This document shows, in pieces, positions 21,861 through 27,690 of a stretch of DNA of 64,000 nucleotides. Numbering within the stretch: position 1 is the stretch's first letter; the number at the start of each line of letters is the position of its first letter. Source of the stretch: Eledone cirrhosa. Taxonomy: Eukaryota. Made by a program: the position numbers and the translations under genes. A model generated the notes under the pieces. That model was not told where the DNA came from. It did not search any database and was given only the letters and a program-made list of their open reading frames with translations. The stretch spans positions 144,522,001-144,586,000 of the forward strand of contig OZ024743.1 in assembly GCA_964016885.1 (NCBI GenBank), read 5' to 3'.

Positions 21861-24180
21861 GTCAGTATTGTAAATCATAGTGATGCACTAAAAAGTGAAT
21901 AAAAATGTCGCATATTCATATAGAAAGATTTCACATGTTGTCTTTATATTTATATCTATATATATATGTGTGTGTGTATGTATGTATATGTATAGTTCTA
22001 TACATGTGTTTATTTATATATATATATATATATATATATATATATATATATATATATATATATATATATATATATATATATATATATATATATGTATATA
22101 TATATATATATATATATATATATGTATGTATAAATATCTATATCTATATATACCTATATATATAGTTTTATATAGTAAGGTGCATTATTGGTTGTGTAAA
22201 ATGGTCCAATAAATTTATGTTAGCAATATTAAGTTCTCTACGCTTTTGTATATCTCCAATTCTGTTCAAGGGAACAGCTAGATGATGAGAAAAATAACGA
22301 TGTTCTCTCACAGAATTCATTCGGAATTTAAGGATAGGTGGTATAATCACCGCCCTACCTTTAATAGATTAGATTTAAAAAAAATAGCACGGCACTTTCT
22401 GAATTAGTCTAGAAGCTTAAATATCAGAATATAGAGCACTCCTTATCCTGGTGCATAGTTTGCTCAGCCCAACATTATGACGGCAGCACTGGCGTCTGCA
22501 ATTTATGTGTAGCTGAAACCTTTAATATTATTAGAAGCGGCCCCCATTAATTAATAGGAGAGCTGATTTTTTCAGCAACTGCCAACATAGAACCTCGAAA
22601 ACTTTCCGCAGGATTTTTGGAAGGTAACCTACCACTAACTCTTCCCTCTCTACTTTAGCCATAGAGTTCTCTCAATAAACAGACAGTCACACACTCAGGT
22701 AGTTAGACGGCTAAGATTGTTTGCGCACTTACAAACGATAATCGGCCTGTTTCCACGGAGTTCTCACAGCTGAGTGCACTTTTTTAGAATACCTAGCTAG
22801 TAAATAGTTAGATTGATTACACACTTAGAATACCTAGTTAGTAATTGATTGCACCCAGAGGCATGACCGATTACGCGCACCTATCTTTACTTTAAGATAC
22901 CCTAACAATTGAGTTCTCTCAGTTGGGCTATAGCTAGTCGTAATACACACTTAGTTAGGACCAGTTACGCTCTCTTTACATAACTCTACACACAGTACCT
23001 GTTTCCTTTAGACATTGAGCTCCCACAATTGCGACTGTCACGTCCCTACCGATTGAACACTACACTAGGTCTTGATCCGTGATCATCTAACCATGGAGGA
23101 CTCACTGTTACGGATTGAACAATAATACTTACACACCATTAATGGGCCTACACACATCCTCTGGATTTTACTATCCTGTGTTTTTTTACTTCACCTTCTG
23201 TGTTGGATAACACACCTCCAACACTCAAACAACTATCTTAAAAGTTCATTGGCCCATTTGACGGGAAATCGCACTTACTGACGCATCTACCCAATACCCA
23301 ACCCTACACGGAGCCCCTGCTGGCCTACATTGTGGTTGCTTGCACGTACAGCACGTACAGATTTGGTGAGTCGGATTCTCAATGGGACTGCGGTACATAC
23401 TGAGTTCGATATGAGCTGATTGCTTGCTCTTCACATGGATGTGTATATACCCAGACATACCATTTTTTGGACGATACGGCTGTGTATATACCATAACATA
23501 CTCTTGAGGATATCGATGTTACAATTCAATCTATACACGTATAGCAGAACACTGAACTAAACTTACTTGCTTGTGTGTGTGTGTGTGTGTGTGTGTGTGT
23601 GTGTGTGTGTGTGTGTGTGTGTGTGTGTGTGTGTGTGTGTGTGTGCGTGTGTGTGTGTGTGTGTGTGTGTGTGGTGGGTATGGAGCGTTTGTTAACCCAA
23701 TATTTCCAATTTACATCGTCAAATTGAGATTTGACCAATGTAGCATCTGTTGTTTTGTGAACTAACTTTCGGATAATGTTGTGTTGGTCCAGGCTTATAT
23801 TTGTTTTTCTTTTCTGACATCGCTTCGGTGTGTGTGAGAGTGTGTGTGTACCCACCCACACTAACTGTGACCTTTATAATTCTACAGGTTTGATACTGTG
23901 TTGATGTGTGTATATATATGTATATATTTTTTTCTTTGACCTCGAGCCGGTGTATGTTGGTGTGGAGTGTGTGTGTACCCACTCACATTAAGTATATCCC
24001 TACAGATTTGATTGATGTCCAGCGTCTTTTGCAGCGATAGAATTCTGACAACTTTTATGACCTCAACTGAAGTTAATAGCAGTCGCCGTGTCTCTCACTT
24101 GTGTGTCTTCATATGAGGGAATGGATTCTGTGAGAGAACATAGTTATTTTTCTCCCTCATATCAAGAATTTTAAGACAAC

Positions 24181-24268
24181 TCATTTTCACCTGATGAGAT
24201 CAGTGATAATCGATCACGGCTTCACAATTGATCTATCTCTTATTGAAACATGTGTCGTGATTAAATGA
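24181..24268 (+). ncRNA. Type I minimal hammerhead-like motif with intact core (also 38248-38335)
   Basis: UCAC-CUGAUGA-(stem II GAU..AUU)-GAAA-C-AUGU-G-UC-GUGA; stem I UCAC/GUGA extended by CAUUU/AAAUG. Confidence 0.65.
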
Positions 24269-25056
24269 TTGGAATTTTACCTTGCCTTCGGATATACCTA
24301 TATATATATATATTTATTTAAAATGTATCTTCGACATTGCTGTATACTTATATGTGTGTGAAGTTCGTATATCTAAAGATATACAGTATGATTAATAAAT
24401 AAATATTCTGAAAGCTCAGCTATGATTAGAAGGCTCGCGGCAAGTGCCGTCTAGCAGAATATAACATAAGCAGAGGAGGATATTAGTCTGTGGATTTTGA
24501 ACTTAATTCTTCACACCAGGACAATGTTTCCTCCTGCAAACTGCTGGATTTAAGACAGGCGAAAATATATACTTTTTTCGTCTGTGTAGTTGGGCTGATT
24601 AGCCTCATTTACATACGAAGCTGTGTAAGTTGCCTCAAGGTAAAATAGAATTAAAATTTACCTATGGCATAGCTGTATACATGTATTTATGTGAATTTTA
24701 TAAATATTTAGATATACAGTATATTTAATAAATAAACATTTTAAAAGCTCAGCTATGAATAGAAGGCCGACTGCAAGCGCCGTCTAGTGGAATCATGCAG
24801 TAGCAGCGGAGGACACATGTCTACACATTTCGAACTTAATGGTTCTAATCAGGACAATGGTTCCTCTTGCTTATTGCTATAATAAAGGACATAAAAGACG
24901 TAATACTGTCAATGATGGACTGCTATTACGAATTTATTTTACGTTTTACCAAATATATTAGTGGATCATTGCATGATTAATTGACAAGAGATAGGTGTGA
25001 TATTATTTAGTGATTAAGAGAGATATATAAATAATCTAACTGTTTTGTTCTTTCAG

Positions 25057-25167
25057 TTGATCCATGCAGTAGCAATCCATGCAAGAACGGAGCTAAATGT
25101 ACAAACAAAGGAAATAAATTCCAATGTGAATGTCTTCCAGGTTACAGAGGAAACGACTGTTCTATTG
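25057..25167 (+). CDS. Array EGF exon 2 (RGN)
   Basis: 111 bp, AG/GT intact, AGA GGA AAC GAC. Confidence 0.9.
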
Positions 25168-25550
25168 GTCAGTATTGGTATTTATAGTGATGCACTCATA
25201 AGTCTATAAAAATGTTGCATATTCATATAGAAAGATTTCACATGTCTTTATATTTATGTCTATATTTATGTGTGTGTGTATGTATGTTTATGTATAGTTC
25301 TATACATGTGTGTATATATATATATATATATATATATATATATATATATATATATATGTATGTATAAATGTCTATATCTATATATACCTATATATATAGT
25401 TGTTATATAGTAAGGTGCAATATTGGTTGTGTAAAATGGTCCAATAAATTTATGTTAGAAATATTAAGTTCTCCACGCTTTTGTATATCTCCAATTCCGT
25501 TCAAGGGAACAGCTAGATGATGTAAAACGGAGTATAAGTATCAAAATAAA

Positions 25551-27690
25551 ATCCGAAGGCAAGGTAAAATTCCAATCATTTAATCACGACACATGTTTAA
25601 ATAAGAGATAGATCGATTGTGAAGCCATGATCGATTATCACTGATCTCATCAGGTGAAAATGAGTTGTCTTCAAGTTCTTGATATGAGGGAGTAAAATAA
25701 CGATGTTCTCTCCCAGAATTCATTCGGAATTTAAGGATAGATGGTATAATGAGCGCCATACCTTTAATAGATTAGATTAGAAAAATAGCACGGCACTTTC
25801 TTAATTAGTCTGGAAGCTTAAATTTCAGAATATAGGGCACTCCTTATCCTGGTCCATAGTTTGCTCAGCCCAACGTTACAACGGCAGCACTGGCGTCTGC
25901 AATTTATGTATAGCTGAAACCTTTAATATTATCAGAGGCGGCCCCCTATTAATTAATAGGAGAGCTTATTTTTTTCAGCAACTGCCAACATAGAACCTCG
26001 AAAACTTTCCGCAGGATTTTTGGAAGGTAACCTACCACTAACTCCTCCCTCTCTACTTTAGCCATAGAGTTCTCTCAATAAACAGACAGTCACACACTCA
26101 GGTAGTTAGACGGCTAAGATTGATTGCGCACTTACAAACGAAACTCGGCCTGTTTCAACGGAGTTCTCACAGCTGAGTGTACTTTTTTAGAATACCTAGC
26201 TAGTAAATAGTTAGATTGATTACACACTTAGAATACCTAGTTAGTAATTGATTGCACCCAGAGGCATGACGGATTACGCGCACCTACCTTTACTTTAAGG
26301 TACCCTAACCATTGAGTTCTCTCAGTTGGTCTATAGCTAGTCGTATTACAGACTTAGTTAGGACCAGTTACGCTCTCTATACATAACTCTACACGCAATA
26401 CCCGTTTCCTTTAGATATTGAGCTCCCACAATTGCGACTGTCACGTCCCTACCGACTGAACACTACACTAGGTCTTGATCCGTGATCATCTAACCATGGA
26501 GGACTCACTGTTACGGATTGAACAATAATACTTACACACCATTAATGGGCCTACACACATCCTTCGGATTTTACTATCCTGTGTTTTTTTACTTCACCTT
26601 CTGTGTTGGATAACACACCTCCAACACTCAAACAACTATCTTAAAAGTTCATTGGCCCATTTGACGGGAAATCGCACTTACTGACGCATCTACCCAATAC
26701 CCAACCCTACACGGAGCCCCTGCTGGCCTACATTGTGGTTTCTTGCACGTACGGATTTGGTGACTCGGATTCTCAATGGGACTGCCGTACATACTGAGTT
26801 CGATATGAGCTGATTGCTTGCTCTTCACATGGATGTGTATATACCCAGACATACCCTTTTTTGGACGATACGGATGTGTACAAACCATAACATACACTTG
26901 AGGATATGGATGTTACAATTCAATCTATACACGTATAGCAGAACACTGAACTGAACTTACTTGCTTGTGTGTGTGTGTGTGTGTGTGTGTGTGTGTGTGT
27001 GTGTGTGTGTGTGTGTGTGTGTGTGCGTGTGTGTGTGTGTGTGTGTGTGTGTGTGTGTGTGTGTGTGTGTGGTGGGTATGGAGCGTTTGTTAACCCAATA
27101 TTTCCAATTTACATCGTCAAATTGAGATTTGACCAATGTAGCATCTGTTGTTTTGTGAACTAACTTTCGCGGAATGTTGTGTTGGTACAGTCTTATATTT
27201 GTTTTTTTTTTTCTGACATCGCTTCGGTGTGTGTGAGAGTGTGTGTGTACCCACCCACTAACTGTGACCTTTATAATTCTACAGGTTTGATACTGTGTTG
27301 ATGTGTGTATATATATGTATATATTATTTTCCTTGACCTCGAGCAAGTGTATGTGGGTGTGGAGTGTGTGTGTACCCACTCACATTAACTATATCCTTAC
27401 AGATTTGATTGATGTCCAGCGTCTTTTGCAGCGATAGAATTCTGACAACTTTTATGACCTCAACTGAAGTTAATAGCAGTCGCCGTGTCTCTCACTTGTG
27501 TTTCTTCATATGAGGGAATGGATTCTGTGAGAGAACATCGTTATTTTTCTCCCTAATATCAAGAATTTGAAGACAACTCATTTTCAGTTGATTTGATCAG
27601 TGTCAATCGATCACGGGTTCACAATCGATCTATCTCTTATTGAAACATGTGTCGTGATTAAATGATTGGAATTTTACGTTGCCTTCGGAT
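25551..27690 (+). mobile_element. Representative Penelope-like remnant bounded by 175-bp inverted repeats (present in each long array unit)
   Basis: 25551-25725 is the near reverse complement of 27516-27690. The GIY-YIG C-terminal half follows the left arm. Confidence 0.8.

Follow-up and report, generated by a model that had tools for sequence, protein, structure and literature searches.

Within a 64,000-nt stretch of the Eledone cirrhosa genome (contig OZ024743.1, forward-strand positions 144,522,001 to 144,586,000; hereafter the window), a row of similar exons is separated by introns that carry long segments complementary to one another. Do these segments form a switch that chooses which exons are spliced, or were they carried along as the exons multiplied? 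Judged from its sequence, the host is a secreted-type gene of the octopus-type VWA-EGF(n) kind, with the following parts.

7590-13121, plus strand: upstream part of the host gene (VWA 7590-8156, EGF 9271-9381, VWA 11330-11896, EGF 13011-13121)
21750-64000, plus strand: tandem array of 14 EGF exon-intron units, continuing past the window end
25057-25167, plus strand: array EGF exon 2 of 14, 111 nt, AG/GT ends, phase 1-1, RGN variant
28455-28565, plus strand: array EGF exon 3, RGD variant

The array units are spaced 3307-3673 nt apart, except for three short units of 1668-1787 nt, and every array exon is 111 nt long and of phase 1-1, i.e., symmetric. The reading frame is open in all 14 window exons, with four synonymous and three non-synonymous changes (p=0.026 vs neutral). 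Seven variable positions sort these exons into seven classes, which follow one another in the genomic order A B C B B D C E B F C G C G; of the 49 ordered class pairs, 12 occur side by side in the window. The RGx triplet reads RGD in five array exons, RGN in seven and RGE in two; its position is what we take to be the conserved glycine of the last EGF loop, where one base change yields RGD, a putative integrin ligand. The closest named homolog has 21 EGF units within one protein model. The host gene resembles the octopus VWA-EGF(n)-VWD proteins (P0157 of Octopus sinensis, source name “notch homolog protein 1 isoform X6”; also P0155 and P0158), the VWA exon being 67% identical to P0157-type proteins and a tandem 37-residue EGF unit being common to both. 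Triplets of the octopus homolog are variable too (15 RGE, 3 RGD, 2 RGK and 1 KGN of 21). Unlike that homolog, the window gene has two VWA-EGF modules ahead of the array.

The complementary segments, termed left and right arms, lie in the introns of the array, and the element named in the list is the retroelement described further below.

22287-22322, minus strand: 36-nt left-arm stub of intron 1, outer part deleted
24119-24293, plus strand: right arm of intron 1, the element 3′ end (pseudo-LTR end) in host-gene sense, hammerhead core intact at 24191-24256
24294-25056, plus strand: remainder of intron 1 up to the acceptor, with two copies of a 334-bp period, about 73% alike
25249-25398, no strand: self-complementary (TA)n microsatellite, found in every array intron
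25551-25725, minus strand: left arm of intron 2, an inverted 5′-truncated copy of the element 3′ end, hammerhead GAAA box broken
27516-27690, plus strand: right arm of intron 2, hammerhead core mutated
50189-50236, plus strand: 48-nt right-arm stub of short intron 9; copies of this deletion lie at 55335-55382 (intron 11) and 60467-60514 (intron 13)

An earlier note on this DNA had described the left arm of intron 2 as complementary to two right arms, that of its own intron and that of the intron before, and this is what the alignments give. Its reverse complement matches 27516-27690 at 160 of 175 positions (15 mismatches, 1790 nt apart, same intron) and 24119-24293 at 166 of 175 (9 mismatches, 1257 nt apart, spanning exon 25057-25167). 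It is equally true, as had been claimed, that any left arm can be matched with any right arm, since 13 full left arms set against 11 full right arms differ by 7-19 mismatches per 175, with arm-vs-arm BLAST E-values of 1e-63 or below, far beyond chance. The statement that arms bracket every intron and every exon was too wide. Both full arms are present in 10 of the 14 introns, a count that includes the final intron cut by the window end, and the other four hold one stub each; 10 of the 14 array exons follow a full right arm and precede a full left arm, leaving four that do not. The computed duplexes agree with the earlier note that pairing could occur within an intron or across an exon, at equal strength (-256 to -280 kcal/mol within, -248 to -284 across) and with loops of 1723-1827 nt within the intron vs 1231-1494 nt across the exon. 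With 760-764 nt between them and the acceptor and 359-623 nt between them and the donor, the arms leave the splice sites unmasked.

Where did the arms come from? The earlier note had supposed them to be transposon-derived, and their source is now identifiable: they are inverted pseudo-LTR ends that belong to one 5′-truncated Penelope-like retroelement (PLE) with Hydra-clade traits, recognised by an endonuclease remnant, a hammerhead core and dispersed copies. In intron 2 the remaining parts of the element are:

25540-25550, minus strand: extra element “tail” of about 11 nt, at the left end only; other genomic copies pass from the tail into (TA)n
25724-25981, plus strand: C-terminal remnant of a Penelope-like GIY-YIG endonuclease with CxxC, E, N and CxH motifs, frame broken here
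25982-27515, plus strand: non-coding body from the endonuclease remnant to the right arm, with (TG)n at 26966-27071 and acceptor-like sites at 27258-27284 and 27385-27402

The remnant begins at the inner edge of the left arm in all 14 introns (tblastn); in the copy at 51665-51916 its frame is uninterrupted for 84 codons. With this open copy, an exhaustive protein search returned 2191 relatives at E<=0.001, and the best Atlas match was a GIY-YIG fragment cluster (0.95). The remnant aligns to residues 543-622 of the RT-EN protein P0109, in which we read by eye a DKT-bearing reverse transcriptase and, C-terminal to it, an endonuclease that lacks internal cysteines, traits in agreement with the Hydra description of PMC8557442. 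The DKT motif also occurs in the relative P0138; reverse transcriptase is absent from the 5′-truncated array copies, and because only some 85 endonuclease codons survive in them, its motifs are visible only in relatives. The regions in which the further Hydra-clade marks would lie (no CCHH motif, a CxCX5C linker and DKT) are likewise missing from the window copies. Among 150 relatives checked, a GIY-YIG-like stretch was found in 46, two internal cysteines in one of these 46, and a CxC..C..C linker in 29. In the window CxxC is present in the remnant, and CxH is in frame with N in the intron 1 copy and out of frame in 10 of 11 long copies. In Pfam the remnant reached no family significantly, its one match being weak and unrelated (E=0.07), and 12 of 12 relatives tested, P0109 among them, went unrecognised; 62 residues of the remnant, used as query in a word-based protein search, gave no matches.

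Like the Hydra-clade PLEs in PMC8557442, the element has a C-terminal GIY-YIG domain with CxxC and CxH around conserved E and N, a hammerhead, (TA)n flanks, 5′ truncation, a flanking inverted copy and a one-sided tail. The same text reports that such insertions are often flanked by an inverted 5′-truncated copy, with the tail at one end. Unlike those elements, which it gives as generally shorter than 3 kb, the 3′ non-coding part here is long (about 1.7 kb with the arm), and the insertion has been multiplied within a host exon array. By these traits, the element probably adds a Hydra-clade family from an octopus-type genome.

Copies elsewhere in the genome fit this identification. Relatives of the body are dispersed and 8-12% diverged in the part tested, which reaches 26950; the 1.5-kb body is presumably a single element, the contig pieces being shorter than 240 nt and the region compared being 25420-26950. 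In DNA runs, the outer arm has a read depth (which is not copy number) about 15-30x that of most of the body, all 30 bins are covered by diverged pieces, and in the second sample, X4, 82 in 100 aligned reads continue into unlike sequence. The depth profile, highest over the outer arm and falling inward, fits 5′ truncation. The loose ends of other copies enter (TA)n (loose end at 25548), and a TA run follows the right arm. Two long and similar inverted ends around a non-coding body might also be the terminal inverted repeats of a non-autonomous DNA transposon (MITE or foldback) that captured a retroelement fragment. However, the outer flanks differ and show no target-site duplication, and the ends are unequal, one being longer by the extra tail. 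The inward fall in depth, the hammerhead core in the arm and the endonuclease remnant starting at the arm edge also speak against such a transposon, which we consider extremely unlikely.

As for the hammerhead, the arm holds a type I core, helix I and a palindromic helix III, a combination found in none of 1000 unit shuffles by a descriptor that was written after the motif had been seen and does not require helix II. An intact core remains in 2 of 11 full right arms and in none of 13 full left arms, all 13 having a broken GAAA box. Helix II is poor and the hammerhead fold lies 6 kcal/mol above the minimum-energy fold; folded without constraint, the arm hammerhead does no better than shuffles (z -0.5 to +0.3). 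Rfam on 22200-29200 gave 21 weak matches, none reaching the gathering score and none a hammerhead. The core boxes, short helix I and dimer-suited palindromic helix III are like those of the minimal type I hammerheads of metazoan PLEs described in PMC4209133, and nearby opposite-strand motif pairs, as seen here, are reported there as well. In contrast to those ribozymes, helix II here is long, imperfect and without a clear G-C closing pair, and the core is mostly lost. A self-cleaving role was considered and set aside, as the sense core is kept in 2 of 14 introns, 14 kb apart, each hammerhead would be bound in a 175-bp duplex, and such hammerheads, according to PMC4209133, need a dimer and cleave poorly.

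Taking these observations together, we consider it very probable that a PLE inserted once in an intron, was multiplied by duplication of the exon-intron unit, and left arms that are now decaying passengers. The element, 5′-truncated inside its endonuclease, would have inserted once into an intron of the VWA-EGF(n) gene, with an inverted copy of its last 175 nt placed at its 5′ side. The exon-intron unit would then have been tandemly duplicated at least 14 times, presumably by unequal crossing-over, each time copying both arms. All left arms differ from all right arms at three sites, from which we infer a single insertion before the expansion. Because both arms are copied with every unit, all-against-all complementarity arises automatically. 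If the gene is transcribed, the arms would be expected to form long intronic duplexes edited by ADAR; such incidental duplexes and editing at the arms are plausible, and some in-frame skipping or multi-exon circles may escape as a by-product, the main product presumably being an EGF stalk that is long and linear.

Over-expansion in the assembly might have inflated the unit count, and hence that of possible pairings, since introns 10 vs 12 and 11 vs 13 show 0.0% divergence in some 730 aligned bases. Most units, however, differ by 2-5% in a mosaic pattern and vary in microsatellite length, so we hold this very unlikely; the arms themselves would be unaffected.

Among the nine complete units, left arms differ by 4.0% and right arms by 2.8%, against 2.7-4.6% in other intron segments and 0.9% in exons (overall exon range 0.9-1.6%). 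Once row and column effects are removed, neighbouring arms are no more alike than arms paired by shuffling (p=0.11 within the intron, p=0.26 across the exon). An apparent across-exon covariation (10.7 vs 11.3 mismatches in shuffled partners, p=0.037) was rejected, because the advantage vanished when arm choice was controlled (p=0.26). Four arms are largely deleted, three of them being copies of a single deletion that was itself re-duplicated. Thus, over the array units compared, the complementary arms are neither conserved nor covarying above intron background; by this comparison there is no sign that pairing is under selection, and the arms appear to be decaying without constraint. The array is young (3-6% divergence), so weak selection on a mismatch-tolerant duplex would escape detection. 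At two sites the left arms of introns 3 and 7 have the letters typical of right arms, a hint of exchange between the arms, which would slow their divergence.

Could arms of retroelement origin have been co-opted all the same, so that they now decide which EGF exons loop out? The earlier note had suggested a combinatorial system of this kind, giving variable RGD content or circular RNAs. Within-intron and across-exon pairings are equally strong and the across-exon loop is the shorter; as all exons are 111 nt and phase 1-1, any loop-out would be in-frame and would alter stalk length and RGD count, given the mixed RGD, RGN and RGE triplets, and a homolog carries the name “isoform X6”. The left arm of intron 1 is mostly lost (its stub duplex reaches -51 vs -280 for the across-exon partner of the intron 1 right arm), so that this right arm would be free for the next left arm across exon 2, freeing the next right arm onward; if the first partner to appear is taken, the register would move to across-exon pairing as far as exon 9 and be reset at the short introns. 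In favour of such a switch, PMC6071210 proposes that duplication of an exon with a stem-loop arm yields competing structures.

The proposal nevertheless finds no support in this sequence. The arms do not stand above intron background, show no compensatory neighbour matching and are mostly deleted in four cases; they are far from acceptor and donor and cover no splice site. All four upstream exons are likewise flanked by dispersed repeats, unrelated to the arms (114-124 nt, 89-92% identity). The RGD variants presumably need a single base change at the conserved glycine of the last EGF loop, and integrin binding is putative. The locus is like Alu-pair back-splicing in having inverted repeats in both flanking introns, well over the 30-40 nt sufficient there (PMC4201285). 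In that text shortening the exon abolished circle formation, so that circles of a single 111-nt exon are disfavoured; the present exons are below the lengths circularised there, and every intron has its own internal partner as well. Octopus circRNAs are low overall and splice sites are seldom altered by editing, according to PMC9699675. As with the Dscam-type docking and selector sites described in PMC6071210, duplication of an exon with an intronic stem arm gives competing pairings automatically. There, many selectors compete for one docking site, with a single exon selected; in the present array both arms are duplicated, distant from splice sites and unconserved, and the homolog includes many EGF exons serially. 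We therefore regard a co-opted switch as unlikely, with only a slight chance of being right. The same slight chance is given to the dead Penelope insertion acting as a co-transcriptional pairing register, in which the first left-arm loss would shift pairing across exons 2-9, ADAR editing or polymerase speed would tune the in-frame EGF/RGD number, and the antisense arm would have silenced the sense-strand hammerhead during decay.

The inverted repeats thus seem to be ordinary passengers, not a switch built for splicing, and the locus stacks two known things, the inverted ends of Penelope-like elements and tandem exon duplication that multiplies intron content. This is a caution for genome scans, as all-against-all complementarity within an exon array requires no selection. 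A search of titles and abstract openings in a limited literature collection returned no account of this locus or of an exon array with PLE arms. The array also offers a natural test bed, with both-arm units, 48-nt-stub units and a 36-nt-stub unit in one pre-mRNA of a high-ADAR animal; were the register model true, a transposon would here determine how long a repeat protein is, in a manner new for such elements. Another inverted pair, from a different family and likewise with hammerheads, lies in the window at 6822-7161.

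The inverted arms are a real feature of the array, and behaviour already known from Penelope-like elements (PLEs), together with tandem exon duplication, accounts for them. The array starts at 21750 and continues past the window end, with 14 EGF exons of 111 nt each (AG/GT ends, phase 1-1). Of its arms, 13 left and 11 right ones are full length. We found all three segments named in the earlier note in place:

25551-25725, left arm
27516-27690, right arm of the same intron, its reverse complement differing from this left arm at 15 of 175 positions, loop 1790 nt
24119-24293, right arm of the previous intron, its reverse complement differing at 9 of 175 positions, loop 1257 nt

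The claim that any left arm is complementary to any right arm also stands, with all 143 full-arm pairs at 7-19 mismatches, but the arms do not bracket every intron and every exon as had been proposed: 10 of the 14 introns hold both full arms and 10 of the 14 exons are fully bracketed, leaving four of each. Four arms were mostly lost by deletion (the left arm of intron 1, reduced to 36 nt, and the right arm of introns 9, 11 and 13, reduced to 48 nt), and one such deletion was duplicated again. The acceptor is 760-764 nt and the donor 359-623 nt away from the arms, so no splice site is masked. Self-complementary (TA)n is present in each array intron. At 24303-24935, as in every later unit, the stretch separating the right arm from the acceptor contains two copies with a 334-bp period that are about 73% alike.

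A broken reading frame on the + strand begins directly at the inner edge of the left arm, and its copy at 51665-51916 is open over 84 codons. This open copy gave 2191 protein matches at E<=0.001 among 1.84 billion, and its top match in the Atlas protein clusters was a GIY-YIG fragment cluster (0.95); Pfam assigned a significant family neither to it nor to any of the 12 relatives tested. When inspected by eye, the relative P0109 reads as a reverse transcriptase that has a DKT motif, a cysteine linker and, at its C-terminus, an endonuclease carrying CxxC and CxH motifs and a GIY-YIG stretch without internal cysteines. PMC8557442 ascribes these traits to the Hydra clade of PLEs. Aligned back to the window, P0109 matches at the left-arm edge in 14 of 14 array introns. 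For this clade, section 11 of PMC8557442 further lists hammerheads, targets of (TA)n type and hosts among molluscs, and the same paper describes PLE insertions as often 5′-truncated, bearing at their 5′ end a truncated copy in inverse orientation, which yields inverted repeats flanking the unit, and a tail at only one end. The arm-bearing element has the testable features of an EN+ PLE and, from its sequence traits, probably belongs to the Hydra clade. A DNA transposon origin is disfavoured, as no target-site duplication was seen at the element flanks. A further remnant of the same PLE linker and endonuclease kind lies on the minus strand at 19279-19637, in the intron preceding the array. Directly upstream of the right arm, acceptor-like sites with branch point, pyrimidine tract and CAG occur in sense to the host gene (27258-27284, 27385-27402 and equivalents in other long introns; strict pattern in 6 of 11 long introns), and they may have served as intron acceptors of the element itself and could be used as cryptic ones by the host.

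Reads of four DNA-type runs from two samples (X1-X4, with X1-X3 possibly from the window's own source sample) were placed on 25420-26950 at 85% likeness. For the outer arm, summed read depth in X1, which is not equal to copy number, was 110,501 and 77,736; it was 24,339 in the inner arm and 1,284-7,224 across 25732-26771, and climbed back to 12,886 at the right-hand end. Loose ends at the arm's outer edge show a tail of about 11 nt and then (TA)n, and 82 in 100 placed X4 reads continue into unlike sequence. The pattern fits an arm that would be the 3′ end of a dispersed, variably 5′-truncated retroelement; with pieces below 240 nt, the depth data do not prove that the 1.5-kb non-coding body between endonuclease remnant and right arm is a single element. 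Left of the left arm, 25420-25523 has high depth in all four runs, indicating a further high-copy repeat adjoining the element.

Within the arm lies the core of a type I hammerhead, which has a helix I and a helix III that forms a palindrome. The descriptor used for it, written once the motif had been seen and not demanding helix II, matched 5 sites in the window and none in 1000 unit shuffles or in 200 made from the 21.7 kb upstream. The arm hammerhead was not detected by Rfam, and its fold reaches -12.4 kcal/mol versus -18.6 kcal/mol for the best fold. Of the 11 full right arms, 2 retain an intact core, and the GAAA box is broken in 13 of 13 full left arms; nearly all matching sequencing records, including 730 of 757 X4 reads, carry the intact letter at this box. 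Similar motifs occur elsewhere:

6822-7161, second inverted pair of an unrelated family, 166 nt, 94% complementary, 8 nt apart, TA-rich flanks, a hammerhead motif in each arm
33, third copy of that motif
695-785 (minus), 265, 5494 and 6349, further hammerhead-like cores, of which the one at 772 has a stem II that is strong (fold z -3.1)

The pair at 6822-7161 is probably another Penelope-like inverted end, and such a layout is therefore routine in this genome.

A single element insertion would have preceded the array expansion: all left arms are set apart from all right arms at three sites, and left and right differ by 6.4%, against 3-4% between units. The units are mosaic and 2-5% apart. Each unit duplication would carry both arms along, so that all-against-all pairing would arise without selection; a related argument appears, for duplicated stem-loop arms, in PMC6071210. 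At arm sites 54 and 72, two left arms (28957-29131 and 43074-43248) have the letter that most right arms carry. These are two of their three private changes, which hints at occasional DNA-level exchange, or gene conversion, between inverted arms. From 49331 to 64000 a higher-order repeat of short and long unit occurs three times over with copies 0.0-1.0% diverged, either a very recent duplication or assembly over-expansion.

In the nine complete units with an exon after them, mean pairwise difference was 4.0% for left and 2.8% for right arms, 2.7-4.6% for four other intron segments, 1.4-2.3% for three short segments at or near exon-proximal ends, and 0.9% for exons (1.6% for all 14). Within-intron partners were no better matched than shuffled ones (mean 11.6 versus 11.4 mismatches, p=0.76). 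Across-exon partners matched slightly better in raw counts (10.7 versus 11.3, p=0.037), an advantage that reflects which arms are available; with row and column effects removed there was no excess match within introns (p=0.11) or across exons (p=0.26). On conservation, the arms fall short of a structure-guided splicing system, and judged by sequence they behave as a passive intronic inverted repeat. Against this passenger reading, weak selection on a mismatch-tolerant duplex would leave no visible trace in so young an array, and the suggested arm exchange likewise counts against it. Upstream, a dispersed short repeat has copies at 3700-3813, 4617-4736, 8713-8836, 12453-12576 and 21229-21349 and a single reversed copy at 10449-10570, which forms inverted pairs (114-124 nt, 89-92% identity) around all four upstream exons, unrelated to the array arms.

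These upstream exons encode, in order, VWA, EGF, VWA and EGF. Among eight long homologs, the best match is a protein of Octopus sinensis (67% identity across the VWA exon), with 21 serial EGF units of the same 37-residue type and then a VWD region. We infer an octopus-type host and a secreted or surface protein in which the EGF units form a long stalk. All 14 EGF exons in the window are open, with 4 synonymous and 3 non-synonymous changes among them (sites 20 to 88; p=0.026 versus neutrality). The RGx triplet reads RGD in 5, RGN in 7 and RGE in 2 of these exons, and is variable in the homolog too (15 RGE, 3 RGD, 2 RGK, 1 KGN).

Computed duplexes are strong and alike: their energies are -256 to -280 kcal/mol for pairing inside an intron and -248 to -284 for pairing across an exon. 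Long duplexes in introns are usual targets of ADAR. According to PMC9699675, editing in octopus falls mostly in introns and 3′UTRs and rarely changes splice sites, and circRNAs are low overall. Any skipping of array exons, as in the combinatorial loop-out that the earlier note had proposed, would keep the frame. Circles of 111 nt are unlikely, because shortening an exon abolished circles in PMC4201285, where short repeats were enough for them; only multi-exon circles seem plausible. A register shift, in which first-come pairing would loop out each of exons 2-9 one after another and start afresh at the short introns, draws on the left stub of intron 1, which pairs at -51 kcal/mol where the across-exon partner reaches -280; the model ignores co-transcriptional splicing and protein coating, it fits poorly with the conservation of the exons and with a homolog of 21 units, and we consider it very improbable.

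The host gene also holds a second tandem duplication, of a VWA plus EGF module repeated near-identically at 7560-9740 and 11300-13500. A degenerate element of 3 kb that ends in (ATG)n lies at about 14050-17100 and, to judge by its motifs, may be a LINE.
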